Shown in pieces: positions 40,079 through 60,874 of a stretch of 64,000 bases of DNA (position 1 is its first letter; every line of letters starts with the position of its first letter). Location: NCBI GenBank assembly GCA_023475105.1, contig JAMCWJ010000076.1, positions 4,951 through 68,950 on the forward strand, written 5' to 3'. The stretch comes from Nitrospirota bacterium. GTDB taxonomy: Bacteria > Nitrospirota > Thermodesulfovibrionia > Thermodesulfovibrionales > UBA9159. The position numbers were made by a program, and so were the translations under genes. The notes beneath the pieces were generated by a model, which was not told where the DNA came from, did no database searches, and worked only from the letters and a program-made list of their open reading frames with translations.

Positions 40079-40099
40079 TCCTCATCTCTCCGCATGCGT

Positions 40100-41620: not shown

Positions 41621-41675
41621 CAATTCCTCCTTGGAGCGGACACAAGATCTTCCGATTCGCAATAGCGCATATTCA

Positions 41676-43592: not shown

Positions 43593-43603
43593 GGTTCACT
43601 CCC

Positions 43604-43906: not shown

Positions 43907-43907
43907 A

Positions 43908-45974: not shown

Positions 45975-46098
45975 TTCTCCCTCACCTCCGCGCGGCCGTT
46001 TCCGGCCATGGGTAAATCTCGTACCGACCTATCCGCCACTAATAAAACAAAATCAGGGCGCTCTTTGTCAATCCGGCCCCTGTCCGCCGCAGCCCGCT

Positions 46099-46593: not shown

Positions 46594-46647
46594 GTCAACG
46601 GTGCGGGAGACAACAAGGAGTTCTACGCGGCCCTGATTGCCTGTCCA

Positions 46648-47844
46648 CTATCTATCACATTCGCCGAGCACGATATCGACAGTCCCGATATTTGCGATCA
46701 CGTCCGCCACGAGGGAGCCCTCGCAGAGCCTCGGTATCACCGAGGCATGCACGAACGACGGAGCCCGCACCCGCATCCGGTACGGTCGGCCGGTCCCATC
46801 GCTCACGAAGTAAAAGCCGAGTTCGCCCTTGGGCGCTTCGATAGCGGAGTAGATCTCCCCTTCAGGAGCAGCAATAGGCCCCTTCGTGATCAGGATGAAG
46901 TGATGGATCATCGATTCCATGCTCTTCAGCACATTGTCCTTCGGCGGAAGAGTGAGCTTCGGCGCATCGGGCGCCATGATCGGTCCCCGCGGAAGCTTCT
47001 CGATACATTGCCGTATGATCCTGTTCGACTGCCTGAACTCCTCCATCCTGCAACGGTATCTGTCGTACACGTCTCCGGTCTTGCCGACGGGCACGTCGAA
47101 CTCCACGTTACCGTATGCATCGTACGGGGCGTATTTTCTTACGTCATAGGCCACCCCCGAACCGCGCAGAGTCGGCCCCGAGAGCCCCCAGTTCACCGCC
47201 TCGTCCGCTTCGATCACTCCGATGCCCTTCGTCCTCTTGAGCCATATCCGGTTCTGGTCGATCAGGGTCTCATATTCCTCCACCCTCTTCGGGAATTCGT
47301 CGGTGAATTTATAGAGGCTGTCCAGAAACTCCTGGGAGACGTCATTCCTAACCCCGCCCGCCCGCGCATAGCTTGTGGTGAGCCTTGCGCCGCAGAGCAT
47401 CTCGAAGAGATCGAGGATCCATTCCCTCTCCCTGAAAGCATAGAGAAACACCGTCATCGCTCCGATATCGAGCGCATGGGTTCCGAGCCACAGGATATGG
47501 CTGCTTATCCTCGACATTTCGGCAACCATGGTGCGGATATACTGCGCCCTTTCAGGGGCCTCGATGCCGAAGAGCCGTTCGACCGCCAGACAATAGCCCT
47601 GATTGTTCGCCATGGCGGCGATGTAATCGAACCTGTCGGTAAGGGGAAGGGCGGTCAGATAGGTCCGGTTCTCCGCGAGCTTTTCGACGCCTCGATGGAG
47701 ATATCCTATATAAGGAGTACACTTGACGACCGTTTCGCCGTCGAGATCGAGGACAAGCCTCAACACCCCGTGCGTAGCGGGATGCTGGGGACCCATGTTT
47801 ATGGTCAATTCCCTGGTCTGTAATTCCGCCTTTCCTCTGTCCAT
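46648..47844 (-). CDS. nuoD: NADH-quinone oxidoreductase subunit D
   Basis: [15 protein letters not shown] and a C-terminal …DIVLGECDR are canonical for NuoD. Confidence 0.95.
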
Positions 47845-47845
47845 A

Positions 47846-48403
47846 TCAGTCCAGTCCGTATGCCTTGTTCTTTTCGGAAAGTTCCAGGGTTTCAGTGAAT
47901 CCCTTCCATTCTTTCTCGCCGAGGTCGCTCTTCAGCGGATAGTCCCTCCTGAGCGGATGCCCCTCCCAGTCCTCAGGCATCAGTATCCTTCTGAGGTCCG
48001 GATGCCCCCTGAACTCTATCCCGAACATGTCGTAACATTCCCTCTCGTGCCAGTTTGCGCCGTCCCATATGCTCACCACGCTGTCGATGACGGGATCCTC
48101 CTCGGGGACCTCCGCCCGTATCCTCAGCATATGCCTGTGACTGACGGAATAGAGCTGGTACACGACCTCGAATCTCGGAGTTTTTCTGCCGAGATAGTCG
48201 ACGCCGCACAGGTCCCTCAGGTAGCTGAAGCAGAGTTCGGAAGTGTCGTGAAGGTATTCCATGATCTCCTTCACTCTGTCTTTTCTCAGCAGAACCGACA
48301 CCTGTCCCCGAAATTCCCGTATCTCTTTCACTTCTTCCGGATAACGCTCTTTCAGTCCTTCGGCGATCGCCTGTGCGATGAGTTTCGCTTCCGTCTGATC
48401 CAT
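47846..48403 (-). CDS. nuoC: NADH-quinone oxidoreductase subunit C
   Basis: The 30-kDa subunit pattern …[26 protein letters not shown]…. Confidence 0.9.
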
Positions 48404-48404
48404 C

Positions 48405-48926
48405 TTATCTCCACCTGCTCCATCTGTAATGTTCCGCCTTTATCTTTTCCTGCAGCTTGATAATCCCTTCCATCAGCGCTTCGGGTCTCGGGGGGCATCC
48501 GGGTATGTAAACGTCGACAGGGAGAAAGGTGTCGACGCCTTGCACCGTACTGTAGGTGTTGTAAATCCCTCCCGAGCATGCGCAGCTTCCCATTGCCATG
48601 ACATACCGGGGCTCGGGCATCTGGTCGTACACCCTCCGTATGATAGGCACCATCTTCTTCGTGACCGTACCCGCGATGATCACCACGTCCGACTGCCGCG
48701 GCGAGCCCCTGAAGATTATCCCGAATCTGTCGAGGTCATAGTGGGCCGACCCCGTGGTCATCATCTCTATCGCGCAGCAGGCGAGCCCGAAGGCCATCGG
48801 CCAGAGAGAGGAAGCCCTTCCCCAGTTCACCACCTTATCGAGGGTCGTGACAATGGCGTTTCCTCCGGGAAGAACCTTCACTCCCTCTTCGACTTCAACA
48901 AGTCCCGTCGCGCCTTCTATGATCAT
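48405..48926 (-). CDS. nuoB: NADH-quinone oxidoreductase subunit B
   Basis: N2-cluster ligands in …[10 protein letters not shown]…, …GSCACSGG… and …IPGCPP…. Confidence 0.95.
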
Positions 48927-48971
48927 ACGGTCATCATCTTTCCGCGGTCGCGATCGGCATTTCCCCGTTTT

Positions 48972-49343
48972 TCAGTCCCATCTGAAGGCCTCTTTCTTCC
49001 ACGCGTAGACATATCCGACCACGAGCACCGCAATGAACAGGAGCATCTCGACAAGGGCAAAGAGGCCTATCTTATCGAACACGATGGCCCATGGATAGAG
49101 AAAAACCGCTTCAACGTCGAATATCACGAAGAGCATGGCGATAATGTAAAACTTTACGGAGAATCTGTATCTCGGCTCTCCGACGGGGGGATTACCCGAT
49201 TCATAGGGGACGAGCTTCTCGCGATAGGGCCTTTTCGGTCTGAAGATGATGCCTGCCGCCAAGGTGCCGAGACCAAAGGCGATAACAATCATCATGAAGA
49301 TGACTATCGGCAAATATTCTTCTGGCAAGAATGCGCTTGGCAT
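48972..49343 (-). CDS. nuoA: NADH-quinone oxidoreductase subunit A
   Basis: 123-aa three-TM protein with …YESGNPPVG…FDVEAVFLYPW…. Confidence 0.9.
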   Translation of the reverse strand: MPSAFLPEEYLPIVIFMMIVIAFGLGTLAAGIIFRPKRPYREKLVPYESGNPPVGEPRYRFSVKFYIIAMLFVIFDVEAVFLYPWAIVFDKIGLFALVEMLLFIAVLVVGYVYAWKKEAFRWD

Positions 49344-49354
49344 AAAACAGTTAT

Positions 49355-49383
49355 TTTATACCTGAACTCACGCGCAGAGTCAA
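49355..49383 (-). promoter_or_regulatory. sigma70-like promoter candidate for the nuo operon (TTGACT-N17-TATAAA)
   Basis: On the minus strand, TTGACT is at 49383..49378 and TATAAA at 49360..49355. The -10 element ends 11 nt before the nuoA ATG, and no SD lies in between. Confidence 0.4.
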
Positions 49384-49446
49384 GTGGTAAATTTAGGCCG
49401 CCTGAAACGGCGGTGTTTTTCCGCGGTTTTTGTGATAAAATTGTGA

Positions 49447-51054
49447 ATGATTCGTAAATCCCTGAACTCCCTTGCCGGCAAGCTCATCATCGCAGTGGGG
49501 ACCTTGATGACCCTCGGCAGCATCATTTTCGGCTTCACCTTCATCCGCTATGAAGAAAAGATCATGATGAACAACCTGGTGAGTTACGCCTCTTCGACCG
49601 CGGACCTCGTCAAGAAAGGCGTCTCCTACGACATGCTATCCGGTCATCGCGAGGCGATAGCACAGACGATCGAAATCGTCGGTTCCGGCTCCGAGATCAG
49701 GGACATCGCGCTGTTCGACAAGCGGGGGAAGATCGTCTTCTCCTCGAAGAAATCCGAAGTGGGCAGGACCGTCGGAAAAGATTCTTCGACCTGCAGGATC
49801 TGCCATAAAGGAGACGGGAAACCCCTCATTGCGATCCCCGAATCGAAACACTGGGCCATTGTGACATCCCCCTCGGGAGTGAAGGTGATGAAACTCGTCA
49901 TGCCGATCTATAACGAGACTGCCTGCTTCTCGGCGTCCTGCCATTATCATCCGAAGGAAAAGAGGATCCTCGGGATTCTCGAAACGAACTTCAGCACCGC
50001 GACCGTAGACACGGCGATCAAACAGAACCGCATCGGCACCTTCCTCTTCGGCGGGCTGTTCATCATCATGATTTCTTTCTGTCTCTGCATCATCCTTTAT
50101 AAGTTCGTCTCGCGGCCGGTTTCCCTCCTCGATGAAGGCATGCACAAGCTCGCCCGCGGGCAACTCGACCATGTCATAGAGATCCATTCGAAGGACGAGA
50201 TGGGGCTCCTCGCTAATACCTTCAACACCATGGCCGGCGACATAAAAAGGTACCAGGACAATATGGAGAACTGGACAAAAGCCCTGGAGGAGGAGATCCA
50301 GAAGAAGACCTCGGAGATCATGAAGGCCCATGATCAGCTCATCAACGCAGAGAAGCTCGCGTCCCTCGGCAGGATGGCGGCGGGCGTCGCGCACGAACTG
50401 AACAGCCCCCTGACGGGGATCGTCACGTTTGCCCATCTCATGCTGAAAAGGATGCCGCCCGAGAACAGGCAGGACATCGAGGATCTCGAGGTGATTATCG
50501 AACAGGCGGAGAGGTGTTCAAAAATCGTCAAGGGGCTCCTCGGCTTTTCGCGGAAGACGAGCGCCGAGAAGGCCTTCGTAAACATCAATACCCTGACGGA
50601 AAACACGATAGCCATGGTGAGGAACCAGGCGAAGTTCCACAACATAAAATTCAACCTGAAATTCGACGACTCCGTCCCCGAGATACCGACCGATCCGAAC
50701 CAGCTGCAGCAGGTCTTCATCAACCTCTTCATTAATGCTGCGGATGCGATGAACGAAAGGGGCCAGGTCACCGTCGCGACGAGGCTGATATCCGATACCA
50801 CCGCCGGCAGGAAGTTTGTGGAGATAGAATTCAGCGACACGGGGCCGGGAATCCCCGAGGAGTTGCTCGGCCGGGTCTTCGAACCCTTCTTCACTACCAA
50901 GCCGGTCGGCAAGGGCACCGGCCTGGGCCTTGCGGTGAGCTACGGGATCATCAAGAAGCACGGGGGAAACATTTTTGTGAGAAGCGAAATCGGCAAGGGC
51001 GCGAGCTTTTTTGTGAGGCTCCCCATAGAGGATAATGCCGCAGCGGACTCTTAG
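49447..51054 (+). CDS. HAMP-domain sensor histidine kinase with a periplasmic domain carrying heme-c-type motifs
   Basis: Two TM segments flank a loop of about 165 aa containing CRICH (CxxCH) and CFSASCH (Cx4CH). HAMP, the H-box AAGVAHELNSPL, and the N/G1/G2 boxes of HATPase_c follow. Confidence 0.85.
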   Translation: MIRKSLNSLAGKLIIAVGTLMTLGSIIFGFTFIRYEEKIMMNNLVSYASSTADLVKKGVSYDMLSGHREAIAQTIEIVGSGSEIRDIALFDKRGKIVFSSKKSEVGRTVGKDSSTCRICHKGDGKPLIAIPESKHWAIVTSPSGVKVMKLVMPIYNETACFSASCHYHPKEKRILGILETNFSTATVDTAIKQNRIGTFLFGGLFIIMISFCLCIILYKFVSRPVSLLDEGMHKLARGQLDHVIEIHSKDEMGLLANTFNTMAGDIKRYQDNMENWTKALEEEIQKKTSEIMKAHDQLINAEKLASLGRMAAGVAHELNSPLTGIVTFAHLMLKRMPPENRQDIEDLEVIIEQAERCSKIVKGLLGFSRKTSAEKAFVNINTLTENTIAMVRNQAKFHNIKFNLKFDDSVPEIPTDPNQLQQVFINLFINAADAMNERGQVTVATRLISDTTAGRKFVEIEFSDTGPGIPEELLGRVFEPFFTTKPVGKGTGLGLAVSYGIIKKHGGNIFVRSEIGKGASFFVRLPIEDNAAADS

Positions 51055-51106
51055 CGGATCGAAAGGGAAATAGCGGACTACGGTGCGTGATGAGGAAGGA
51101 GAAAGC

Positions 51107-51466
51107 ATGACCCTCGGGAGAGTAATCGAGATACTGGAAGCAGAGGTGGTCGTTGATGCGATCGACAGAGAAATGGAAATCCGCTCGATATGCAGTTCCG
51201 ATCTCATGAGCGACCTTCTTCACTTTTCGAGCAGACCGAAGTCCATACTCATCACGGGCCTCAACAACACACAGGCGATCAGGACGGCCGAAATTGCGGA
51301 CATAAAGGGGATCGTCTTCGTGCTCGACAAGAGGCCGGACAAGGAAACGGTCCGCATGGCGCGGGAGAAGGGCATCCCCCTGATGGTGACGAGACTGTCG
51401 AGGTTCACCGCCTGCGGCAGGCTCTATGCAGCGGGGCTCGGCAGCTGCACCGGGGAGGACCGGTGA
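51107..51466 (+). CDS. DRTGG domain protein
   Basis: The ATG at 51107 follows GGAAGGAG. The pattern …SDLMSDLL…ILITGLNNTQAIRTA…GIPL… is DRTGG-like. Confidence 0.65.
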   Translation: MTLGRVIEILEAEVVVDAIDREMEIRSICSSDLMSDLLHFSSRPKSILITGLNNTQAIRTAEIADIKGIVFVLDKRPDKETVRMAREKGIPLMVTRLSRFTACGRLYAAGLGSCTGEDR

Positions 51467-51906
51467 CCAGAAGGAACATCGAGGGAAGCTTCCATCTCAG
51501 CGGAGGGGATTTTACCAATGCGGGCGCGGCATCGAGTGAATTGAAATCAATCCTGACAAACCTCGGTATCAACCCGGAAATCGTCCGGCGGGCGGCCATC
51601 GCCACCTTCGAGGCGGAGATGAACGTGATCATCCACGCCGTCGCGGGAGTGATGTACTACCTCATCACCCAGGACACCATCAAGGTTGTCCTGAACGACA
51701 TGGGTCCCGGCATCCCCGACATCGACCGGGCGATGACGGAAGGCTATTCTACTGCGCCTGATTGGATACGGGAGATGGGCTGGGGCGCGGGAATGGGGCT
51801 GCCGAACATGAAGAAGAACTCCGATAGATTCAAACTAGACTCGGTTGTCGGAGAGGGGACAACGGTAGAGATCATCATACGGATCAAGGAGGGCAAAACA
51901 GAATGA
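51463..51906 (+). CDS. HATPase_c-only protein (RsbW/anti-sigma-factor-kinase-like)
   Basis: GTG at 51463 (GTGA overlap with the upstream stop) is preceded by GGGGAGGA. Boxes are EAEMNVIIHA (N), NDMGPGIPD (G1) and GAGMGLPN (G2). Confidence 0.7.
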   Translation: MTRRNIEGSFHLSGGDFTNAGAASSELKSILTNLGINPEIVRRAAIATFEAEMNVIIHAVAGVMYYLITQDTIKVVLNDMGPGIPDIDRAMTEGYSTAPDWIREMGWGAGMGLPNMKKNSDRFKLDSVVGEGTTVEIIIRIKEGKTE

Positions 51907-52238
51907 ACGTGCAAGAGATTGTCGACGCCTTGTCTCTGGAAGTGAAAACTGCAAAGGGAGACCTCAGCCGTACGGTTACCGGGTGCTATATCAGCGACCT
52001 GCTCTCCGACGTGATGGCGAACGCCAAAGAGGGCGAGATATGGATCACCCTCCAGACCCATCCGAACGTCGTGGCCGTGGCCTCCCTCAAGAACCTCGGA
52101 GGCATTATCGTGACAAACAGACGTAGCCCGGAAGCGGAGACGCTCCAGAAAGCCGAGAACGAAGGCGTCGTTATCGCGGTAAGCCCCCTCTCGACATTCG
52201 AGGTGGGAGGCATGCTTTACAAGATGCTGCGATGCTGA
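51903..52238 (+). CDS. DRTGG domain protein (paralogue of 51107..51466)
   Basis: ATGA overlap with the upstream stop. …SDLLSDVM…WITLQTHPNVVAVA…GVVI… follows the same pattern as the first DRTGG gene. Confidence 0.65.
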   Translation: MNVQEIVDALSLEVKTAKGDLSRTVTGCYISDLLSDVMANAKEGEIWITLQTHPNVVAVASLKNLGGIIVTNRRSPEAETLQKAENEGVVIAVSPLSTFEVGGMLYKMLRC

Positions 52239-52975
52239 AACCGTACCATGCCGACCTCCATATGCATACCTGCCTTTCTCCGTGCGCAGAAATCGATATG
52301 ACCCCGCGCGAAATAGTCGCAGCTGCCCTCAGGAGAGGGCTGCATCTCATCGCTGTTACAGACCACAACTCGGCCGAAAATGCGGAGGCAACGAGAAGAG
52401 CCGCCGAAGGGACGGGGCTTGTGGTCTTCGCGGGCATGGAAGTCACTTCGTCCGAGGAAGTGCATATCCTCGCGCTCTTCGAGTCACCTGACGGGGCCGG
52501 GGCGCTCCAGGACGTGGTGCACAGAAACCTTCCCGCCGGCGAGAACGATGAGAGGCTGTACGGGCACCAGATAATCGTGAACAAGGACAATGAAGTGATG
52601 GGCTTCGACAGGCGGCTGCTTATCGCGGCCACCGGACTCAATGCCCGTGCCCTTGTCGACCTGATCCGGTCGCTTGAGGGTGTCTCGATCGCAAGTCATG
52701 TCGACCGAGAGGCCTTCAGCGTTCTCTCACAGCTGGGATTCATCCCTGAAGACCTCAGATTCGACGCCGTCGAGCTTTCGCCGAAAGTGGGAAGGCAAGC
52801 GGCGGAACGGCTCTTCGGTGGTCTGAAGAGATTTCCCTGGGTCTCCTTTTCGGACGCCCACTACATCAGGGACATCGGCAAGAGAGTCACCACCTTCATG
52901 CTGGAGGAGGCGACCTTCGGAGAGATGAAGGCCGCGCTTGCCTCCGCAGGCGGCAGGGACATCTTCTGGGAGTGA
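52232..52975 (+). CDS. PHP-domain phosphoesterase
   Basis: HADLHMHTCLSPCA, VTDHNS and the GMEV… metal-ligand pattern of the PHP fold. It overlaps the upstream gene by 7 nt. Confidence 0.75.
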   Translation: MLKPYHADLHMHTCLSPCAEIDMTPREIVAAALRRGLHLIAVTDHNSAENAEATRRAAEGTGLVVFAGMEVTSSEEVHILALFESPDGAGALQDVVHRNLPAGENDERLYGHQIIVNKDNEVMGFDRRLLIAATGLNARALVDLIRSLEGVSIASHVDREAFSVLSQLGFIPEDLRFDAVELSPKVGRQAAERLFGGLKRFPWVSFSDAHYIRDIGKRVTTFMLEEATFGEMKAALASAGGRDIFWE

Positions 52976-52979
52976 CTCC

Positions 52980-53525
52980 ATGGAAGACCTTTCCCTGCAT
53001 ATCCTCGACATCGTCGAGAACTCCGTCGCAGCCGGAGCGACGACCGTGGAGATCACGGTCGAGGAAGATACGGGAAAGGATCTGCTCGGCCTGGAGATAA
53101 AAGACAACGGCAAGGGCATCGATAATGATATGATAGAGGCAGTTACCGACCCTTTCTTCACGACGAAAACAGTGAGGAGGGTGGGACTTGGCCTGCCGCT
53201 GCTGAAACAGGCGGCAGAGGGATGCGAGGGCACCTTCTCTCTCAGGTCGGACAAGGGAAAGGGCACGACGGTGTCAGTCGGCCTCAGACGCAGTCATATC
53301 GACAGAAAGCCGCTGGGTGACATGGCGGCTACGATGATAGTGCTGATAGCCGGCAATCCCGAAACTGACTTTGTCTTCTCGTACAGGAAGGATGAACTCA
53401 GTTACCGGCTGGATACCCGGGAAATCAGGGAAGAGCTGGCAGGGATACCGATCACTTCTCCCGAAGTGCTGAGGATAATACGGGAGGACATGGAGAGAGG
53501 GCTGAGCAAAGAGGCGGCAGGATGA
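52980..53525 (+). CDS. HATPase_c-only ATP-binding protein
   Basis: Start ATG at 52980. Boxes are LDIVENSVAAGA (N), KDNGKGI (G1) and VGLGLPL (G2). There is no HisKA/H-box. Confidence 0.7.
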   Translation: MEDLSLHILDIVENSVAAGATTVEITVEEDTGKDLLGLEIKDNGKGIDNDMIEAVTDPFFTTKTVRRVGLGLPLLKQAAEGCEGTFSLRSDKGKGTTVSVGLRRSHIDRKPLGDMAATMIVLIAGNPETDFVFSYRKDELSYRLDTREIREELAGIPITSPEVLRIIREDMERGLSKEAAG

Positions 53526-53911
53526 GCAAACCCCGGATACTGGTGATCGACGACGAAGAGATTGTGAGAATAAGTTGCAGGAAATGCCTCGCCCCCGAAG
53601 GATATGAAGTGGATCTTGCAGGGAGCGGCGCAGAGGGTATGCGCGTTCTGGCGGAAACCCCGTATGATCTTGTCCTGACCGACCTCAAGATGCCCGATAT
53701 GGACGGCATGGAATTCTTGATGAAGATAAAGGAGGCCAGGCCAGGCACAAAGGTGATCATGATAACCGGATACAGCACCGTGGAACATGCCGAAGAGGCG
53801 ATGCTGCTGGGTGCATGCAATTATGTAGAAAAACCCTTCACCCCCGATACTCTTATCAGGGCGGTAAGGGAAGCATTAGGGGAAGCTGGAAAGCGAAGGG
53901 ACGACGCCTAG
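53522..53911 (+). CDS. stand-alone response-regulator receiver (CheY-like)
   Basis: VIDDE, LVLTDLKMPDMDG, MITGY and EKPF show all phospho-acceptor pocket residues are present. There is no output domain. ATGA overlap with the upstream stop. Confidence 0.9.
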   Translation: MSKPRILVIDDEEIVRISCRKCLAPEGYEVDLAGSGAEGMRVLAETPYDLVLTDLKMPDMDGMEFLMKIKEARPGTKVIMITGYSTVEHAEEAMLLGACNYVEKPFTPDTLIRAVREALGEAGKRRDDA

Positions 53912-54029
53912 CGAACGCCGGAGAGTAGCGTTGTGCCGCAACTCTCACCGCCCTCCGTCCGTGAAGAATGCTTGATAAAGGAGAGTTTATTTATTTATTA
54001 TAATAGCAAGTTGCAAGGAGGGAAATTCA

Positions 54030-54893
54030 ATGGCGGGCAGAATACTTGTGGTAGATGACGAACCTGTCGTTGTCAAGAGCTGTGAGCGCATCCTGACTCC
54101 CGCAGGTTATACCGTGGACGGCGCCTCGAACGGCAACGAGGCCATCGGCAAGCTTGGCAAGGACGGCTATGACCTTGTGGTGACGGATCTCAGGATGCCT
54201 GACATCGACGGCCTTGAACTCATCCGGTGGATCAGAAACTCGAAGCCGGAAACGGGCGTTGTGGTGATTACGGGCTACCCGTCGCAGGAGAGCATACGGG
54301 AAGCCCTCGGCCTCCGGATTCTGGATTACCTGCCGAAACCTTTTTCCCCGGCCCTCCTTACCGAAATCGTCCAGCGCGCCATGGAATACAAGAAGGCGGG
54401 CAAGGTCACTGAGACCCCTCCTTCCGAGGAATACACCGAGGAGATGGCGAAAGAACTCGACGGAATCATCAGGAAATACAGAAAGAAGCCCGGGAGTCTG
54501 ATTCCCGTCCTCCAGGAAGCGCAGGAACTGATCGGCTACCTCCCCCCCTCCGTGCAGAGACACATCGCAAGAGGCTTGAAGGTGCCGGTAAGCGAAGTGC
54601 ACGGCGTGGTGTCGTTCTACTCCTTCTTCACGATGAAACCGAAGGGAAAGCACAACATACGCGTTTGTCTCGGCACGGCCTGCTACGTGAAGGGCGCTGA
54701 AGAGATCGTGAAAAAACTGAGCGAAGGCCTTGCGATCAGCGTCGGCGGCATCACTGAGGACAAGAACTTTTCTCTTGAAACCGTGCGGTGTCTCGGAGCA
54801 TGCGGACTCGCACCTGTTGTCGTAATAGACAAAGACACCCATGGTTCCATCAATGCCGTGAAGGTCCACGAACTCTTGAAAGATTACGAATAG
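54030..54893 (+). CDS. receiver domain fused to a NuoE/HydC-type 2Fe-2S subunit
   Basis: Residues 1-118 form an intact REC domain (VVDDE, VVTDLRMPDIDG, VITGY, PKPF). Residues ~135-287 are NuoE-like, with the 2Fe-2S ligands in CLGTAC and CLGACGLAP. Confidence 0.85.
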   Translation: MAGRILVVDDEPVVVKSCERILTPAGYTVDGASNGNEAIGKLGKDGYDLVVTDLRMPDIDGLELIRWIRNSKPETGVVVITGYPSQESIREALGLRILDYLPKPFSPALLTEIVQRAMEYKKAGKVTETPPSEEYTEEMAKELDGIIRKYRKKPGSLIPVLQEAQELIGYLPPSVQRHIARGLKVPVSEVHGVVSFYSFFTMKPKGKHNIRVCLGTACYVKGAEEIVKKLSEGLAISVGGITEDKNFSLETVRCLGACGLAPVVVIDKDTHGSINAVKVHELLKDYE

Positions 54894-54902
54894 GAGGCGG
54901 AT

Positions 54903-55286
54903 ATGGCCAGGCTGACGATAGAGGATCTGAAAAAAATAAAGGAAGATTACAAGGCGATGCTCACTCTGAGAGAGGGCGGATACAGGGCGAAGATCACCGT
55001 TCATATGGGCACTTGCGGCATTGCCGCGGGCGCGAGAAAAGTGATGGAGGCGCTTCTCGACGAGATAAACACGAGCAATGTAAAAGACGTGATCGTCACC
55101 ACGTCGGGATGCGCCGGGCTCTGCAGCAAGGAGCCGATGGCTACCGTCGAAATGATCAACGAAGCCCCCGTGAAATACGTCCAACTCAACGATGAGAAGA
55201 TACGAAAAATTTTCAAGGAACACGTCCTGAACGGCCGGATCGTCCAGGATTCCGCCCTTGTCATGGGAAGTGAAACGGCATACTGA
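54903..55286 (+). CDS. thioredoxin-like 2Fe-2S ferredoxin (HydD-like small subunit)
   Basis: The HMGTCGIAAGA … SGCAGLCSKEP pattern. AGGAGG lies upstream. Confidence 0.75.
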   Translation: MARLTIEDLKKIKEDYKAMLTLREGGYRAKITVHMGTCGIAAGARKVMEALLDEINTSNVKDVIVTTSGCAGLCSKEPMATVEMINEAPVKYVQLNDEKIRKIFKEHVLNGRIVQDSALVMGSETAY

Positions 55287-55290
55287 GAAT

Positions 55291-55325
55291 AGCATAGGTC
55301 AAATATGACTTATATGACCTATGCT
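55291..55325 (+). other. perfect 11-bp intercistronic stem-loop
   Basis: AGCATAGGTCA (55291..55301) pairs with TGACCTATGCT (55315..55325) around a 13-nt AT-rich loop. It sits between the 2Fe-2S gene stop and the SD of the NuoF-like gene. Confidence 0.6.
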
Positions 55326-55339
55326 TCTTTGGAGGAGGA

Positions 55340-57223
55340 ATGGAAAAGTACCGCGCAAGTGTAATGCTGTGTGGAGGCACCGGTTGCATCGCAGGCGGCA
55401 GTTTGAAGGTCAAGAACGCTCTCGATGCGGAGCTTAAGAATAGAGGTCTCGAAAATGAAATAAACGTCGTTCTCACCGGCTGCAACGGCTTCTGTGCCGA
55501 AGGCCCTGTCATGACCGTCTACCCCGAAGACATTTTTTATGAAAAAGTTACGCTCAACGATGTGCCCCTGATCGTGGAAGAGCACTTTATCAAGGGAAGG
55601 CCGGTGGAGAAACTCATGTACAAGGAGCCGCTGAAGAAGCAGCCCATCCCGCTGATGAAGGAAATCCCCTTCTTCAGCCTCCAGGTGCTCAGGGCGCTGA
55701 GGAACAAGGGGCTCGTCGATGCCGAAAAGATCGAAGAATATATCGCGAGGGACGGATATCAGGCTGCGGCAAAGGCGTTGACGGAGATGACCCCGGCACA
55801 GATAATCGACGAACTGAAGAGGTCGGGGCTCCGGGGAAGAGGGGGCGCGGGCTTCCCCACGGGCATGAAATGGGAACTCTGCGCGCGGGTGCAGGGAGAC
55901 CAGAAGTTCATCCTCTGCAACGGTGACGAAGGGGACCCCGGCGCCTTCATGGACCGGAGTGTCATGGAGGCGGACCCCCATGTGGTCCTTGAGGGAATGA
56001 TAATCGGCGCAAAGGCGATCGGGGCGGACAAGGGGTATATCTATGTGAGGGCGGAATATCCTCTGGCAGTGCACCGTCTGCAACTTGCAATAAACCAGGC
56101 GAAAGAGAACGGACTTCTGGGGAATAATATCCTGGGCACGGGCTTTAACCTCGACATCGAGATATATCTGGGGGCGGGCGCCTTTGTCTGCGGTGAAGAG
56201 ACAGCGCTCATGCGTTCCATCGAAGGGAAACGGGGAATGCCAAGGCCGAGACCTCCCTTCCCCGCCCAGAAAGGACTGTGGGACAAGCCTTCGGTGCTCA
56301 ACAACGTCGAGACCTACGCGAACATTCCCCAGATAATCCTGAACGGCTCCGACTGGTACAGAAGCCTCGGGACGGAAAAATCGACAGGCACAAAGGTCTT
56401 CGCCCTGAGCGGTGCGATAAGCAACATAGGACTTATAGAGGTGCCGATGGGAATTCCCCTCAGGAAGATCATTTATGACATCGGCGGCGGGGTACCCAAG
56501 GGAAGAAAATTCAAGGCCGTTCAGCTCGGCGGGCCTTCCGGAGGGTGTATCCCGGAGCATCTTCTCGATACCCCGGTCACCTATGAAGACATCGTACAGA
56601 CGGGGGCCATCGTCGGTTCGGGCGGTATGGTCGTCATGAACGACCTGAACTGCATGGTGAGCGTCGCAAAATTCTTCCTCGAATTCACCGCGGAGGAATC
56701 CTGCGGCAAATGCCCTCCTTGCAGGATCGGCACCACGGTGATGCTTGATCTCCTGACGAAGATCACCGAGGGGAACGGGAAAGACGGGGACATAGAGCTC
56801 CTCGGCGATATGGCTCTCGACATCATCGCCACCTCCCTGTGCGGACTGGGGCAGACCGCCCCGAACCCCGTGCTGACGACGATAAAATACTTCAAGCAGG
56901 AGTATGAATCACACATCTATGAGAAATGGTGCAAGACCGGTGTCTGCAAAGACCTCTGCACGTTCTATATCGACGAAGAAAAGTGCAAGGCCTGCGGTGT
57001 ATGCAAAAGGGTCTGCCCCCAGAAAGCGGTTACCGGGGAAAAGAAGGTGCCCCACCACATCGATCAGTCTCTCTGCATCCAGTGCCGCTCCTGCTATGAG
57101 GCGTGCAAGTTCGACTCGGTGAAGATAGGCCCGCGGAGCATGAGGGATGAGCTGCTGAACCTCCCCGACCAAGAGGCGCTGAAAAACAAGCAGTTAGAGG
57201 CACTCGCGGGAAAGGGGGAATAG
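55340..57223 (+). CDS. NuoF-like NADH-binding flavoprotein with HydB/HndC-type extra domains
   Basis: N-terminal thioredoxin-like 2Fe-2S domain, FMN/NADH motifs GRGGAGFPTG and GDEGDPGAF, the N3 cluster ESCGKCPPCR, and two C-terminal 4Fe-4S motifs (CKACGVCKRVCP, CIQCRSCYEAC). Confidence 0.9.
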   Translation: MEKYRASVMLCGGTGCIAGGSLKVKNALDAELKNRGLENEINVVLTGCNGFCAEGPVMTVYPEDIFYEKVTLNDVPLIVEEHFIKGRPVEKLMYKEPLKKQPIPLMKEIPFFSLQVLRALRNKGLVDAEKIEEYIARDGYQAAAKALTEMTPAQIIDELKRSGLRGRGGAGFPTGMKWELCARVQGDQKFILCNGDEGDPGAFMDRSVMEADPHVVLEGMIIGAKAIGADKGYIYVRAEYPLAVHRLQLAINQAKENGLLGNNILGTGFNLDIEIYLGAGAFVCGEETALMRSIEGKRGMPRPRPPFPAQKGLWDKPSVLNNVETYANIPQIILNGSDWYRSLGTEKSTGTKVFALSGAISNIGLIEVPMGIPLRKIIYDIGGGVPKGRKFKAVQLGGPSGGCIPEHLLDTPVTYEDIVQTGAIVGSGGMVVMNDLNCMVSVAKFFLEFTAEESCGKCPPCRIGTTVMLDLLTKITEGNGKDGDIELLGDMALDIIATSLCGLGQTAPNPVLTTIKYFKQEYESHIYEKWCKTGVCKDLCTFYIDEEKCKACGVCKRVCPQKAVTGEKKVPHHIDQSLCIQCRSCYEACKFDSVKIGPRSMRDELLNLPDQEALKNKQLEALAGKGE

Positions 57224-57227
57224 GGAA

Positions 57228-59702
57228 ATGATAGAACTCAAGATAAACGGAAAAAACATACAGGTCGAGCAGGGCGCGACCCTGCTTCAGGCTGCGCTCG
57301 CAAACGGCATTTATATTCCGAACCTCTGCTACGACAAGAGACTCAGACCGTACGGCGGCTGCAGGCTCTGCATTGTAGAGCTGGAGGGACAGAAAAGGCT
57401 TTTTGCCGCCTGCTCCACCCCGGCGGAGAACGGAATGGCGGTCCGGACCGAGACCCCGAGACTTCATAAGGCGAGGAAGACGGTACTCGAGTTCCTGCTG
57501 ATCCATCATCCCCTGGATTGTCCGGTCTGCGACAAGGCAGGAGAATGCAAGCTCCAGGACCTCGCGTTCAAATACGGCCCGTCCGAGTCGAGGTTTGTCG
57601 GGGAAAGGAAGCACGAACCCGAGAGGATTGCCGCTCCGCTCGTCGAGAGAAACCCCAACAGGTGCATCCTGTGCGGAAAGTGCGTGAGGGTGTGCTATGA
57701 CCATCAGGGAGTCGGCGCGATCAGCCTGCTCGGCAGAGGGTTCAAATCGAAGATCAGCCCCGCCTTTGAGGAGACCCTCGATTGCGAGTTCTGCGGTCAG
57801 TGTATCGATGCCTGTCCCGTCGGCGCCCTCGGCAGCAAGCCTTACCGCTTCCGGTCAAGGGTCTGGTTCATGGACGAAAAGCCGATCACCTGTCCCTACT
57901 GCGGCTGCGGATGCACTACAAACCTGAGCCTCAGGGATGGAAGGATCATACGCGCCAGGGGAAGACAGGGTGTCGGGACGAACGACGGCGACCTTTGCAG
58001 CAGGGGAAGGTTCGGGTTCGACTATATCTACTCGGAAAACCGACTCACGACGCCCCTCGTCAGGAAAGAAGGGAAGCTCGTCGAGGCATCATGGGAAGAG
58101 GCCCTCGAGTTCGTCGGCAAGAGACTCGAAGAGATAAAGGAGATGAGCGGTCCTTCGGCGATCGGTGCGATCGGTTCCCAGAGATGCACGATGGAAGATA
58201 ATTACCTGTTGCAGCGCTTCATGCGGGAGGTCATCGGGACGGACAATGTCGACTCTGCTGCGCGCTTCGGTTACGCAAAGGCACAGAAGACCTTCGAAAA
58301 AGCCTTCGGTCTCGACCTCCAACCGATACAGTGGGACGCGCCTCTGAAAGCCGATTTCATCCTCGTGGTGGAGTCGGACATCACCTCGGCCGTGCCCGTA
58401 TGGGGACTGAACTTCATCAGCGCCAGAAACAACGGGGCGCAGCTTGTCGTCGCGGATGCGAAGGAGACGAAACTTGCGCGTAACAGTACTTCGTGGCTCC
58501 AGATAAAGCCCGGATCAGGGGTCGCCCTTCTTAACGGGATTGCAAAAGTGATCCTCGATGAGAAGCTGTACGACCTCGATGAGGAAGTCCCCATGGAAGA
58601 CAAGAACCTCACCATCCCGAATTATGAGGCCATGGTGAGGGGGCTCGCCGAGTTTACCCCGGCTGCGGTTTCACAGCTCACCGGTCTTTCCGAAAACGAG
58701 ATTGTTCACCTCGCACGGTCTTACGCTGCCGCAAAGAGCAGACTCCTGTCTCTCACCTCGAGCGCCTCGGAGAACACAAAAGGCCTGAATACGCTCCTGG
58801 CGGCCGCAAATCTGGCGATCCTCATGGGTGACGGGCCCGACACGCTGCAGATACCCGCGGAGTTCTCGAATACGCTCGGCATGTGGGAAGTCGGGGTGAG
58901 GCCGCTTTCCGGGGGAAAAGACGCGTACGAAATGCTGTATAAACCCGGGACGATGAAGGCCCTCTATATGATGGGCGAGAACCCTCTGGTCACGTGCAAG
59001 GACGTTTCGGTGGTCGAAAAGACCCTAAGAGGCCTCGAACTGTTTATCGTGCAGGACATCATCCTTACTGACACCGCAAAACTTGCGGACGTGGTGCTGC
59101 CCGCCAGCAGTTGGGGAGAAAAGGAAGGCATCTTTATGTCTGCCACGGGGGACATTCATGAGATCCCCAAGCTTCTCACTGAAACCGGCCAGTCGATCCC
59201 CGACTGGAAGATCTTCAGGAATCTTGCGAGGGCGATGAACAAGGACCTCGGGGTGACAGATCTGGCAGAGATCAGGGGCGCGATCATGGACCTGATCGCC
59301 GCGGCGCCTGCCGGCGAAGAGGTCAGGAGTTTCACCCCCGTGGAATTCAAGGTCTCCGAGAGGCCCGACGAAGAGTATCCGATGCTTCTGGTCACGGCGA
59401 ATCTCCTGCAGCACTCGGGTGCCCTGTCGATACTTTCGAAAAACCTGGGCTCTGTGGTCTCGGATGCGTATCTGCAGATCAATCCCGGGGATGCAAAAAA
59501 ATACAAGATTCACGACGAAGGATATGTGAAGGTGACATCGAGAAGGGGAGAGGTGTATCTGAAGGCGATGGTCAGCGAAGAAATGCCGGAGGGCGCGGTG
59601 TTTGCCCCGACGCATTTCCCCCATGCCAACGTCAATGCCCTGACCCATCCTCCGCTGAACGGTGAGGCACCGACGGACGCGATCAAGATCCAGCTCGCTT
59701 GA
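57228..59702 (+). CDS. NuoG-like Fe-S / molybdopterin-fold subunit lacking the catalytic Cys/Sec
   Basis: 2Fe-2S (CYDKRLRPYGGCRLC), HxxxCxxCxxxxxC (HHPLDCPVCDKAGEC), 4Fe-4S motifs and CPYCGCGC, then a molybdopterin-oxidoreductase fold. The position equivalent to the FDH Cys/Sec-His reads NVDSAARFGYAKAQ. Confidence 0.85.
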   Translation: MIELKINGKNIQVEQGATLLQAALANGIYIPNLCYDKRLRPYGGCRLCIVELEGQKRLFAACSTPAENGMAVRTETPRLHKARKTVLEFLLIHHPLDCPVCDKAGECKLQDLAFKYGPSESRFVGERKHEPERIAAPLVERNPNRCILCGKCVRVCYDHQGVGAISLLGRGFKSKISPAFEETLDCEFCGQCIDACPVGALGSKPYRFRSRVWFMDEKPITCPYCGCGCTTNLSLRDGRIIRARGRQGVGTNDGDLCSRGRFGFDYIYSENRLTTPLVRKEGKLVEASWEEALEFVGKRLEEIKEMSGPSAIGAIGSQRCTMEDNYLLQRFMREVIGTDNVDSAARFGYAKAQKTFEKAFGLDLQPIQWDAPLKADFILVVESDITSAVPVWGLNFISARNNGAQLVVADAKETKLARNSTSWLQIKPGSGVALLNGIAKVILDEKLYDLDEEVPMEDKNLTIPNYEAMVRGLAEFTPAAVSQLTGLSENEIVHLARSYAAAKSRLLSLTSSASENTKGLNTLLAAANLAILMGDGPDTLQIPAEFSNTLGMWEVGVRPLSGGKDAYEMLYKPGTMKALYMMGENPLVTCKDVSVVEKTLRGLELFIVQDIILTDTAKLADVVLPASSWGEKEGIFMSATGDIHEIPKLLTETGQSIPDWKIFRNLARAMNKDLGVTDLAEIRGAIMDLIAAAPAGEEVRSFTPVEFKVSERPDEEYPMLLVTANLLQHSGALSILSKNLGSVVSDAYLQINPGDAKKYKIHDEGYVKVTSRRGEVYLKAMVSEEMPEGAVFAPTHFPHANVNALTHPPLNGEAPTDAIKIQLA

Positions 59703-59726
59703 CAGAGGAGATGCGGGTAAGGGCTG

Positions 59727-59993
59727 TTGATTCCGTACAAGGACGATAACCCTGCTGGCGTTTTCCCTGTCGTTACGGTCGCGATAGTTTTTCCGAACGC
59801 CGTCCTGTCCCCCGTATCCGCCTTGATTGTTATAGGATTTTGGGCTATTATACAGCCGGTCGGTGCTCTGATTACCCAGGCGCTGCCGGGCAGGGATAGT
59901 GTCGCGTGGTTCGCCCATGTTGGCGGGTTTCTTTTTGGTCTCATCACCGTCAAATTGTGGCTGCCGAAAAGGAGGGTTCCCCAGTGGTCATAA
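59727..59993 (+). pseudogene. rhomboid-family protease remnant (internal deletion removes the catalytic Ser region)
   Basis: The 88-aa ORF has a rhomboid-like N-terminus (MIPYKDDNP…FPVVTVAIV) joined directly to the last TM region with the catalytic His (VAWFAHVGGFLFG). The GxSG helix and about 130 aa are absent. Confidence 0.5.
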
Positions 59994-60874
59994 TTTGCCC
60001 GAAATGCAAAGTGAAACTGAAAGTGGCTGATGAAAAAATAGCCCCCGAGGGTACGCGCTTCAAGTGCCCCAGGTGCAGCACTGTTCTGCTGGTGAAAAGG
60101 CCGACGCCGAAGATGAAACCCCTCGATCTTGCCACGGTTCTTGTGGCCCACGAAAAGCCTTCGGTGATGGAGAGGATAAAGTCCGTGCTCTCGACGCAGG
60201 GATACCGGATTATCGCTGTTTCGGACGGTATCACGGCGATGGTGAATGCGACAAAAGAATTGCCCTTTCTCTCTCTCCTGAGCGTCTCCCTCCCGAAGAT
60301 TTACGGATTCGAGATATGCAGAAGGCTGAAAAGCAGGCCGGAAACGAAGGGCATGAAGGTGATCCTGATTGCCTCCATCTACGACGAGAAAAGATACCGC
60401 AGGGAACCGGAATCCCTTCACGACGCTGACGATTATCTGGAAGAGCATCAGATAGAAGAAATGCTCGGCCAAAAAATCAACCTCCTGAGAGGGACCCCTG
60501 AAACTGCCCGCCCGTCTGCTCCCGCGCCGGGAACGGAAGGGCCCCGCGGGCAGGCGCCGCAGCCGGAAGACAAGGCGAGGGCAGAAGAGAGGCCCCGTCC
60601 CTCGCTGCCTGAAGTGAAACCCTCGGAAGCCCCTGAGGTGGAAAAGGCGCGGCGGCTCGTGAGAATCATACTGTCCGACATCTATCTTTACAGCAAGGCG
60701 AAAGTCGATGATTCGATCAGGAACGGCACGTTCCATAAGACTTTTTCCTCTGAATTGAGGGAAGGACTCAAGCTGTACGAGAATAGGATTTCGGCCGATA
60801 TAAGAAGCCGGGGTGACTTCTATAACGAAGCAGTCAATAATTTCATAGAGAAAAGAAAAAAAGAAATAGCTTAG
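59984..60874 (+). CDS. zinc-ribbon / pseudo-receiver / Pro-rich linker / conserved C-terminal domain protein
   Basis: GTG at 59984 follows AAAAGGAGGG. MJ0042-type CPKC…CPRC ribbon. The REC-like fold has Ser at the phospho-acceptor position (LSLLSVSLPKIYGFE). A P/E/A-rich linker and a C-terminal domain ARRLVRIILSDIYLYSKAKVDDSIRNGTF follow. Confidence 0.6.
   Translation: MVIICPKCKVKLKVADEKIAPEGTRFKCPRCSTVLLVKRPTPKMKPLDLATVLVAHEKPSVMERIKSVLSTQGYRIIAVSDGITAMVNATKELPFLSLLSVSLPKIYGFEICRRLKSRPETKGMKVILIASIYDEKRYRREPESLHDADDYLEEHQIEEMLGQKINLLRGTPETARPSAPAPGTEGPRGQAPQPEDKARAEERPRPSLPEVKPSEAPEVEKARRLVRIILSDIYLYSKAKVDDSIRNGTFHKTFSSELREGLKLYENRISADIRSRGDFYNEAVNNFIEKRKKEIA

Follow-up and report, generated by a model that had tools for sequence, protein, structure and literature searches.

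Receivers and NuoE-type subunits in described systems

Receiver domains are not confined to transcriptional control: CheB, PleD and RssB are response regulators with outputs other than DNA binding, and CheY and DivK consist of a single domain. The NADP-reducing hydrogenase HndABCD of Desulfovibrio fructosovorans is encoded in the order NuoE-like HndA, small 2Fe-2S protein HndB, NuoF-like HndC and large Fe-S subunit, and to our knowledge HndA carries no receiver. FixT, an Fe-S-binding receiver, exerts feedback inhibition on its kinase (PMC7078487). A subunit of mycobacterial complex I, MSMEG_2064/Rv3143, is an orphan single-domain response regulator (PMC10068793, PMC9274095); it is stoichiometric in the complex, with its phospho-Asp (Asp63) buried (PMC10068793), and the authors called such a receiver subunit unique to mycobacteria (PMC10068793, PMC9274095).

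Members of the electron-bifurcating Bfu family are recognised by a BfuB with NuoF FMN, SLBB, 4Fe-4S, ferredoxin-type and N-terminal 2Fe-2S domains (Schut et al. 2022, PMC9304861), together with a BfuA that contains at least a 2Fe-2S ferredoxin-type and a 4Fe-4S domain (PMC9304861). Neither receivers nor response regulators are mentioned in the paper defining the family (PMC9304861). Within the family, a Nuo-Bfu type has been predicted, in which a 14-subunit complex I possesses a BfuABC head and whose BfuB proteins fall into clades 38 and 39, including Nitrospirae (PMC9304861). In HydABC, the C1/B1 clusters and a mobile domain have been implicated in bifurcation (PMC9499530).

A receiver fused to a NuoE-type domain

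Analysing 64,000 nucleotides of a Nitrospirota contig (JAMCWJ010000076.1; this whole stretch is referred to as the window), we found at 54030..54893 (+) one unbroken ORF of 287 aa, with an ATG start and AGGAGG 5' of it. In its product, aa 1-122 form a CheY-like receiver and aa 137-287 a NuoE/HydC/BfuC-type domain, joined by a linker of about aa 123-136; we refer to this protein as REC-BfuC on the basis of Pfam, solved-structure matches, conservation among orthologues and an AF2 model. Response_reg (PF00072) matches residues 5-114 (E 2.5e-29, profile positions 1-110 of 111) and 2Fe-2S_thioredx (PF01257, IPR002023) residues 144-286 (E 4.6e-50, profile positions 2-144 of 145), which bears out the initial annotation in its description of a complete receiver and a complete NuoE/HydC domain in a single ORF; every motif quoted there (VVDDE, VVTDLRMP, VITGY, PKPF, CLGTAC, CLGACGLAP) is present. 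The receiver contains the acidic pocket D9 and D10, the phospho-acceptor D53, T81, K103-P104 and an aromatic Y100 on beta5. The NuoE-type half combines an N-terminal helical bundle with a thioredoxin-like [2Fe-2S] fold and has kept, as claimed, all four cluster cysteines (Cys213, 218, 254 and 258). Its closest solved relatives are the HydC subunits of bifurcating hydrogenases (7t2r_C, 7q4v_C, 8a6t_C, 7p5h_C): BfuC/HydC of HydABC-type enzymes can be aligned over the whole length of the C-terminal 150 aa, the four cysteines included, but the matched chains align only to residues ~134-287, the N-terminal receiver being the feature that distinguishes the fusion from them.

In the AF2 model the receiver adopts a (beta/alpha)5 fold of five strands alternating with five helices (pLDDT ~80-93). 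The linker, first estimated at about 15 aa, comprises ~14 residues (123-136) and is predicted to be a flexible or disordered tether, with pLDDT <50 for residues 125-133. Both domains are modelled with confidence, and the model yields no defined interdomain contact or geometry (pTM 0.55); it therefore does not discriminate between mechanisms, and any structural mechanism is speculative.

To the idea that a receiver gene and a nuoE gene were merged through a sequencing error, in assembly or annotation, we attach next to no weight. A Logan contig of 3,548 bp, assembled separately from a mine-tailings metagenome at ~10x depth, spans 53500..55400 and shows 0 mismatches and 0 gaps there, support for the junction that is contig-level and not read-level. 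At least 120 best database clusters (69-100% identity, Thermodesulfovibrionales/Nitrospirota, many from independent assemblies) are full length with both Pfam domains, and so are distant fusions of other phyla. A missed stop or frameshift at the domain junction, which the initial annotation had wished to see excluded, is thereby ruled out. In the 120 orthologue clusters D9 is kept in 118 and D10 in 119, D53, T81, K103, P104 and the four cysteines are invariant, and Y100 varies hardly or not at all. Judged by this conservation, the fused receiver is canonical and under purifying selection, and we propose that it is a functional phospho-acceptor.

The fusion is rare: of the top 150 matches in 1.84 billion representatives, those with this architecture form ~19 clusters at 50% identity. 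The architecture had been called unusual, which stands as to its rarity but not in the sense that it would be unique to the source genome; among the matches listed (a sample, no census) it also occurs in KSB1, Zixibacteria, deltaproteobacterial and other metagenome-assembled genomes (MAGs). Its supposed novelty has to be qualified likewise: our literature search found no paper on a receiver-NuoE/BfuC fusion, but the architecture recurs in several phyla and is already auto-annotated in databases, some JGI annotations naming such fusions 'HndA'. All carriers are uncultivated MAGs or metagenome contigs, and a search for RNA runs holding the locus found none. In a neighbour-joining tree of NuoE domains, which is too weak for choosing between a single and a repeated origin, the fusions fall into two or three clusters, mixed with unfused or truncated sequences. 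Some distant fusions (P0125, P0128, P0200, P0203) have degenerate receivers, in which the acidic pocket or the phospho-Asp is missing, so phosphorylation is not a universal requirement for the role of the domain. One of these, P0125, belongs to the Dissulfurispiraceae. Taken on this sequence evidence, the REC-NuoE fusion gene is real, conserved and uncharacterised.

The enzyme genes and the neighbouring nuo operon

Three enzyme genes follow on the same strand. The first (54903..55286, +) encodes an HndB-like thioredoxin-like [2Fe-2S] protein of 127 aa, which has a weak Pfam match to 2Fe-2S_thioredx and whose PDB matches are the 2Fe-2S domains at the N-termini of NfnB, StnB and HydB; this gene adjoins the fusion in every locus examined. 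The second, two genes downstream of the fusion (55340..57223, +), encodes a NuoF of the BfuB/HydB type (627 aa, with an end-to-end PDB match), and a NuoF-type gene accompanies the fusion in all loci examined. It comprises an N-terminal 2Fe-2S domain, the FMN/NADH site, an N3-type 4Fe-4S cluster and a C-terminal 2x[4Fe-4S] ferredoxin domain; in Pfam, Complex1_51K, NADH_4Fe-4S, two Fer4 and 2Fe-2S_thioredx score above the cut-off, and SLBB is weak (E 2.8e-4, below cut-off). Residues 3-594 match the bifurcating NiFe-HydB 7t2r_B at 827 bits, compared with ~390 bits for respiratory NuoF/Nqo1. The flavoprotein partner presumed by the initial annotation is hence present as a NuoF-type gene, but the HydB match makes the pair Bfu/HydABC-type and not a generic NuoEF.

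The third gene (57228..59702, +) encodes BfuA, a NuoG/FdsA-like protein of 824 aa, characterised by Pfam and NCBIfam searches and an FdsA alignment; its Pfam domains are Fer2_4, NADH-G_4Fe-4S_3 and Fer4_Nqo3, i.e. 2Fe-2S and 4Fe-4S clusters followed by a molybdopterin-type domain. Against the NuoG and Fdh-alpha profiles of Pfam and NCBIfam both scores lie below the cut-off. The best solved-structure matches of this subunit are FdsA (404-410 bits), FdhD lies downstream in three related loci (L001-L003) and MoaA/MoaC are found nearby in several relatives, all of which would suit a formate dehydrogenase, either NAD-linked or bifurcating (FdsGBA or Fdh-Bfu type), with the receiver regulating formate metabolism. 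We nevertheless regard this as highly unlikely and reject it on the catalytic residues. Aligned with FdsA of R. capsulatus, ARVCHSPT has become ARFGYAKA, with loss of the Mo/W-ligating Cys/Sec-His, and PLRGQNNVQG has become IPAEFS-NTLG, in which Glu replaces the catalytic Arg; all nine orthologues checked have FG[YH] at the Cys-His site and IPAE[FYL] at the Arg site. Moreover, the NCBIfam profile for Fdh-alpha scores 437, well short of its cut-off of 666, and FdhD and MoaA are absent from the window. Because the catalytic Cys-His and Arg are lost in 9/9 orthologues, BfuA is, as far as its sequence tells, NuoG-like and not a formate dehydrogenase; it may still bind a pterin with a non-formate function. 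The catalytically degenerate pterin domain of BfuA is a further difference from the HydABC-type enzymes.

The domains by which BfuB and BfuA of the Bfu family are recognised were found in 55340..57223 and 57228..59702, respectively, and as in HydABC-type enzymes the neighbours of the fused gene are a BfuB with N-terminal 2Fe-2S and C-terminal 2x[4Fe-4S] domains and a BfuA with NuoG-type clusters. On these domain assignments the four genes REC-BfuC, HndB-like, BfuB and BfuA are a Bfu/HydABC-type module, that is, of the electron-bifurcating family. The gene order equals that of HndABCD, from which the cluster differs in a large subunit without an H-cluster domain. In every REC-BfuC/HndB/BfuB/BfuA cluster examined (L001-L009, L032, L086-L088) the fused gene is the sole NuoE-type gene, so that the role of the BfuC subunit must fall to its product. 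Three Bfu types carry the fusion: the NuoG-like type of the window, an HdrA/MvhD/HdrBC-linked type in KSB1 and Zixibacteria, and an [FeFe]-hydrogenase-linked type in L032, which suggests that what is regulated is the BfuBC core they have in common. An ordinary complex I NuoEFG was rejected on account of the HydB/BfuB-type NuoF, the presence of the HndB-like gene and the position of the cluster outside the nuo operon.

That operon (38645..49343, -; Pfam) encodes 11 subunits in the order nuoABCD-(cNMP-binding gene)-HIJKLMN. It lacks nuoEFG, the gap between nuoD and nuoH being filled by the cNMP-binding gene, and the fusion cluster is divergent from nuoA. The module possibly docks to this adjacent nuoEFG-less Nuo complex. 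Taken further, the cluster would be a detachable, phosphorylation-controlled head for the 11-subunit Nuo, fed by NADH and ferredoxin (confurcating) and gated by a di-haem sensor kinase, a reading we consider rather doubtful. As in the predicted Nuo-Bfu, a Nitrospirota genome combines a NuoF of the Bfu type, equipped with a ferredoxin domain, with a NuoG-like BfuA devoid of a catalytic pterin site, here beside a nuo operon without nuoEFG; in Nuo-Bfu, however, bfuABC occupy the nuoEFG position inside the operon, whereas the cluster of the window is separate, divergent and separately regulated. L006 and L007 have an orthologous nuo operon (NuoA-D 64-77% identical) in the same divergent arrangement and have kept the canonical nuoEFG. 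Altogether, nuo adjoins the fusion cluster in three of the 11 Nitrospirota-type loci examined (window, L006, L007) and is not adjacent in L001-L005 and L086-L088. If the reading as a detachable head were true, two-component signalling would here switch the input module of a respiratory complex, and a receiver would have become a component of complex I for a second time, independently of mycobacteria.

With MSMEG_2064/Rv3143 the fusion shares a CheY-like receiver within a NuoEFG-related machine, and the two can also be likened in that the mycobacterial gene adjoins nuoA and modulation by protein-protein contact, not by transcription, has been proposed for it. MSMEG_2064/Rv3143 is, however, a separate protein that binds NuoB/A/C/I at the Q-module and has no known kinase, whereas the present receiver is covalently joined to NuoE/BfuC, would occupy the other end of the peripheral arm, provided that the module docks to Nuo, and is encoded together with an upstream kinase and a second, free receiver.

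Upstream signalling genes and proposed control at the protein level

The kinase (49447..51054, +) is a membrane sensor histidine kinase with the Pfam layout TM - periplasmic domain - TM - HAMP - HisKA - HATPase. Its periplasmic domain contains CRICH (aa 116-120) and CFSASCH (aa 160-166), both CxxCH-type motifs being kept in six orthologues, one of which has Cx7CH for Cx4CH; a weak Pfam match to the haem-c sensor family PF21563 was also obtained, and the domain is probably a di-haem c redox sensor. Between the kinase and the fusion lie a DRTGG-domain protein (51083..51466, +; Pfam), a SpoIIAB-like HATPase_c_2 protein (51463..51906, +; NCBIfam anti-sigma F factor-like, E 4.8e-14) with a likely GTG start at 51463 overlapping the preceding stop (GTGA) and orthologues of 149-164 aa, a second DRTGG-domain protein (51903..52238, +; Pfam), a PHP-domain metallophosphoesterase-like protein (52232..52975, +; Pfam, NCBIfam) and a stand-alone HATPase_c resembling a kinase catalytic domain, without HisKA (52938..53525, +; Pfam, NCBIfam). 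The stop of the latter overlaps the start of a stand-alone receiver of 129 aa (53522..53911, +; Response_reg E 1.4e-31), a paralogue of the fused receiver. The two receivers, estimated by eye at about 45% identity, are 46% identical over 122 aa, and the gap between their genes is 118 nt, as the initial annotation had it. The DRTGG block is kept in L005, L086 and L087 and lies downstream of BfuA in L006/L007, and in L032 the Bfu cluster, of the [FeFe]-hydrogenase type, is likewise bordered by DRTGG/HATPase/PHP genes; our literature search found nothing on a role of these genes beside Bfu clusters.

The order kinase, receiver, fusion, all in the same orientation, is found in six loci (window, L005, L006, L007, L086, L087), the stand-alone receiver of the five relatives occupying the same position. 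This gene order suggests that the kinase phosphorylates the fused receiver, and it is reasonable to take both receivers as targets of one kinase. No DNA-binding regulator was found between kinase and enzyme genes in the window, or in the clusters of L086 and L087; L005 and L006 contain an NtrC-type activator. The best sigma-70 consensus match in 49200..60000 (TTGATA-18-TATTAT, 10/12; 53972..54001, +) is a promoter candidate, in a region where the total count of such sites is no higher than in shuffles; it is located within the 118 nt that precede the fusion gene. Sigma-54 control was rejected for the window, which has no GG-N10-GC promoter 5' of the fusion gene. Among the relatives, L002, L004, L005 and L088 have clear TGGCA[CT]-N5-TTGC sites and L006 a weaker GG-N10-GC. 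Structured RNAs and tRNAs were searched for in the window and none were found. The absence of a DNA-binding regulator from the clusters of the window, L086 and L087 and of a sigma-54 promoter from the window speaks for phospho-control at the protein level.

With moderate confidence we thus favour REC-BfuC as the BfuC subunit of a four-gene Bfu-family module that is switched by phosphorylation at the protein level. The membrane kinase would sense the periplasmic redox state via its probable di-haem c domain and phosphorylate Asp53 of the fused receiver, and probably the stand-alone receiver as well. Held on a flexible tether of ~14 aa at the N-terminus of BfuC, the receiver might dimerise or re-dock once phosphorylated, and this movement could alter either how the BfuABC protomers oligomerise or how accessible the region of the C1/B1 clusters is, the place to which BfuB has to bring its mobile ferredoxin-type domain in the solved HydABC structures; NADH/ferredoxin-linked electron flow would then be switched at the protein level. 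In this scheme we infer the phosphotransfer from the kinase, the sensor haem, the structural effect of phosphorylation and the third substrate or partner of the enzyme. That phosphorylation gates assembly or electron transfer, as the initial annotation suggested, is a reasonable assumption. Like CheB, PleD, RssB, CheY/DivK and FixT, the fusion would then have a canonical receiver controlling an enzyme or a protein-protein interaction and not transcription; unlike them, its output is no self-contained enzyme or signalling domain but a structural redox subunit within an oxidoreductase of several subunits, and unlike in FixT the Fe-S cluster is not inside the receiver itself (PMC7078487).

The number of receivers per kinase, up to four in L005/L006 (REC, NtrC-type, REC-GCV_H-like and REC-BfuC), would also fit the reverse logic, in which the redox or assembly state of BfuC tunes receiver phosphorylation and the receiver, as a phosphate sink or kinase inhibitor, feeds the state of the enzyme into a branched pathway (the stand-alone REC, and NtrC-type or REC-GCV_H proteins in relatives). 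FixT, inhibiting its kinase by feedback, provides a precedent (PMC7078487). We judge this improbable: the clusters of the window, L086 and L087 hold no transcription-factor output for such feedback, and the NuoE domain constitutes an entire enzyme subunit, encoded by the sole NuoE-type gene of the enzyme cluster.

Equally improbable, in our opinion, is a mainly structural receiver, a permanent supernumerary module anchoring BfuC to the Nuo Q-module or to a second protomer, with phosphorylation of minor importance or absent. The stoichiometric MSMEG_2064 with its occluded phospho-Asp (PMC10068793) is consistent with such a docking role, as is the retention of degenerate receivers in some fusion lineages, e.g. 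that of P0125; yet in the orthologue group of the window, whose 120 clusters reach down to 69% identity, the residues of phosphoryl chemistry vary hardly or not at all, and the kinase is kept upstream in the six loci named above.

Bfu/HydABC-type enzymes are central to anaerobic energy metabolism, and our literature search found nothing on their post-translational control. The fusion suggests that control by a sensor kinase reaches beyond transcription and switches the enzyme itself. A receiver on BfuC offers a testable handle, namely a putative D53 phospho-switch beside the C1/B1 clusters implicated in bifurcation. Mycobacterial complex I is the single known example of a receiver in a NuoEFG-related machine, to which the fusion would add further lineages and a covalent form. 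Together with the putative periplasmic haem-based sensor, the fusion suggests a direct route from the extracellular redox state to the cytoplasmic NADH/ferredoxin balance.

A receiver-NuoE fusion and its occurrence

The open reading frame at 54030..54893 (+) runs through 287 codons in one open frame with a strong ribosome-binding site (AGGAGG) and joins a complete receiver (residues 5-114, E 2.5e-29 in Pfam) to a complete NuoE-type, thioredoxin-like 2Fe-2S domain (residues 144-286, profile positions 2-144 of 145, E 4.6e-50 in Pfam), as read in the initial annotation, every quoted motif of which was found again in this frame. That two separate genes were joined by an artefact can be rejected: a Logan contig from a separate assembly (mine-tailings metagenome, 3,548 bp, ~10x) is identical to the window over 53500..55400 and each of the 120 top-ranking database clusters (69-100% identity) spans the full length and includes both domains, ruling out, at the contig level, a missed stop or frameshift at the junction. 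The fusion is therefore confirmed. These clusters, from Thermodesulfovibrionales, Nitrospirae or Dissulfurispiraceae MAGs, are usually annotated as 'NAD(P)H-dependent oxidoreductase subunit E'.

Throughout the 120 clusters D53, T81, Y100, K103 and P104 of the receiver and the four 2Fe-2S cysteines of the NuoE domain are invariant, D9 is kept in 118 and D10 in 119, and conservation is lowest in the linker. A purely structural role of the fused receiver is a less likely rival reading, and some distant REC-NuoE fusions do carry degenerate receivers. In an AF2 model from an alignment of 56 orthologues the (beta/alpha)5 receiver is confident, the NuoE domain moderately so, and residues 125-133 are disordered; its pTM of 0.55 therefore suggests two domains on a flexible tether.

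The architecture had been called unusual, and literature searches indeed found no paper on a receiver-NuoE fusion, but it is already present in databases, auto-annotated by JGI as 'NADH:ubiquinone oxidoreductase subunit E/CheY-like chemotaxis protein'. Among the best 150 matches of an exhaustive profile-free search (1.84 billion representatives, 50% identity clusters), 18 clusters have REC followed by NuoE, two of them resembling tandem doublets, and one has the reversed order; named members are Dissulfurispiraceae, Pseudomonadota and Deltaproteobacteria MAGs. The two tandem representatives and the reversed one (among P0121, 578 aa, P0126, 501 aa, and P0258, 246 aa) may be genuine variants, or gene calling may have run through adjacent genes. 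In GTDB species genomes, full-length fusions occur, among the matches listed, in Nitrospirota, KSB1, Zixibacteria and an unclassified MAG, and a rough NJ tree is compatible with a single or several origins.

The enzyme module and the neighbouring nuo operon

Downstream of the fusion lie genes for an HndB-like thioredoxin-like 2Fe-2S protein (54903..55286, 127 aa), a NuoF-type flavoprotein (55340..57223, 627 aa), to which a 2Fe-2S domain is added at the N-terminus and a 2x[4Fe-4S] ferredoxin domain at the C-terminus, and a large Fe-S subunit (57228..59702, 824 aa) that combines NuoG-type clusters with a molybdopterin-type domain. Over its whole length the flavoprotein matches HydB from solved structures of electron-bifurcating hydrogenases (7t2r_B, 827 bits), whereas respiratory NuoF/Nqo1 reach only ~390 bits, and the NuoE part of REC-NuoE is nearest to HydC of bifurcating enzymes. 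As Schut et al. 2022 (PMC9304861) define the family by its domains, the module is BfuABC with the fused protein (REC-BfuC) as BfuC.

Among solved structures, the 824-aa subunit is most similar to FdsA formate dehydrogenases. Its counterpart of the Mo-ligating Cys-His site (ARVCHSPT in R. capsulatus FdsA), however, is ARFGYAKA, the Glu of IPAEFS-NTLG stands opposite the catalytic Arg in PLRGQNNVQG, and these replacements are common to all nine orthologues checked; formate dehydrogenase activity was therefore rejected in favour of a NuoG-like subunit, predicted to be catalytically degenerate. The former active site (residues ~343-352 and ~540-552) reads AARFG[YH]A and LQ[IV]PAE[FYL][SA]NT.G in 9/9 orthologues, and such conserved replacements hint at a new pocket function rather than simple decay. 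A pterin-dependent activity on a substrate other than formate is conceivable. FdhD and MoaA/MoaC lie near the cluster in some relatives, and none was found within the window. FdhD occurs at L001:17515-18282, L002:17587-18345 and L003:12465-13223 of related loci and MoaA, of molybdenum-cofactor biosynthesis, at L002:6211-7194, L004:780-1772 and L088:628-1614, both despite a BfuA without formate dehydrogenase active-site residues.

The partners of REC-BfuC differ elsewhere. The KSB1 and Zixibacteria loci (L008:3706-11808, L009:7773-10562) combine it with BfuB and a short BfuA (214-218 aa) coupled to HdrA, MvhD and HdrBC-like genes, L008 holding the HdrBC-like gene and further HdrA copies, and would encode an Hdr-linked Bfu enzyme bearing the same fusion. 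In the unclassified MAG (L032), a DRTGG/HATPase/PHP set and a 525-aa HATPase_c_2, ferredoxin and partial [FeFe]-hydrogenase (HydS-like) protein (777-2351) precede REC-BfuC; behind it come a 1,040-aa fusion of BfuB with a GltD-like module for NADPH binding (5036-8155) and then [FeFe]-hydrogenase HydA. The receiver therefore goes with the conserved BfuBC core and not with one catalytic partner.

Divergent from the kinase gene of the locus, 103 nt away, stands a nuoABCD-HIJKLMN operon lacking nuoEFG. Between nuoD and nuoH, at 46099..46593 (-), a 163-aa cyclic-nucleotide-binding protein (PF00027, E 1.3e-19) is encoded in the exact spot of canonical nuoEFG in L006/L007; this regulatory-looking gene has taken the place of the N-module genes. 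The divergent arrangement recurs in both loci, and Nuo subunits 64-77% identical mark the blocks as orthologous. That REC-Bfu serves Nuo as an alternative, regulated head is attractive but rather unlikely, since the L006/L007 operon keeps nuoE (154 aa), nuoF (420 aa) and nuoG, and eight other loci examined have the cluster without nuo adjacency. In the Nuo-Bfu predicted for Nitrospirae, bfuABC lie inside the nuo operon (PMC9304861), whereas here the cluster is divergent from it.

The two-component locus and its outputs

On the same strand (+) upstream of the fusion follow a membrane HAMP-HisKA-HATPase kinase (49447..51054), a DRTGG protein (51083..51466), a SpoIIAB-like HATPase_c_2 protein (51463..51906), a second DRTGG protein (51903..52238), a PHP protein (52232..52975), an HATPase_c protein without HisKA (52938..53525) and a stand-alone receiver (53522..53911). 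The latter ends 118 nt before the fusion gene, as stated initially, and its identity to the fused receiver, estimated by eye at about 45%, is 46% over 122 aa. The periplasmic domain of the kinase carries CxxCH (CRICH, ~49792..49806) and Cx4CH (CFSASCH, ~49924..49944), kept in six orthologues down to 51% identity (Cx7CH in L087), and weakly matches a haem-c sensor family; the kinase may thus well be a c-type di-haem redox sensor.

The kinase-to-fusion cluster recurs in L086, L087, L005 and L006/L007 (91%, 83%, 75% and 56-57% identity). Its DRTGG-HATPase_c_2-DRTGG-PHP block precedes the receiver genes in the window (51083..52975), L005, L086 and L087 and stands downstream of BfuA in L006 (15961-17847) and L007 (15967-17839); since it travels with the Bfu genes in one piece, it is probably tied to them functionally. 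After the cluster, before groES/groEL, a zinc-ribbon (PF13717) and receiver-like protein is encoded at 59906..60874 (+), its start uncertain as the mechanical frame is longer than the orthologues; the gene keeps its position in L004, L005, L086 and L087.

In many relatives, including L005, L006 and L007, a REC-GCV_H-like gene (~255 aa) lies directly upstream of REC-BfuC, preceded by sigma-54 promoters TGGCA[CT]-N5-TTGC (L002:9138, L004:9108, L005:9043, L088:9137) or a weaker GG-N10-GC site (L006 ~9150), and an NtrC-type sigma-54 activator is also encoded in L005 and L006. Neither gene is found in the window, L086 or L087, nor is there a sigma-54 promoter upstream of the fusion in the window, where the 118-nt gap holds a candidate sigma-70-like site (TTGATA-18-TATTAT); the window lineage has lost all three. 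The kinase would therefore have no local outputs other than the free and the enzyme-fused receivers, which favours control at the protein level.

Possible control of the enzyme

In solved HydABC, which works as dimers of ABC protomers, clusters C1 of BfuC and B1 of BfuB sit where the mobile ferredoxin-type domain must approach (PMC9499530). The nearest solved receivers to the fused one are NtrC1. Phosphorylation of D53, on a receiver tethered by ~14 aa at the BfuC N-terminus, could lead to dimerisation, as in NtrC-class receivers, and alter protomer association, or to docking that occludes or exposes the C1/B1 region. Less probably, REC-BfuC would act as a feedback sensor in the manner of FixT (PMC7078487). 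Of the systems studied by experiment, MSMEG_2064/Rv3143 comes closest: this receiver, whose gene lies upstream of nuoA, forms a structural subunit of complex I in mycobacteria, its phosphorylation being proposed to block binding (PMC10068793, PMC9274095); that receiver, however, is a single-domain protein and not fused.

The initial interpretation is partly supported and sharpened. REC-BfuC is best described as a predicted BfuC subunit with a fused receiver, part of a Bfu-type module whose NuoG/FdsA-like subunit is catalytically degenerate and which lies inside a two-component locus. It joins two known kinds of proteins, the Bfu family and response regulators whose outputs act at the protein level.
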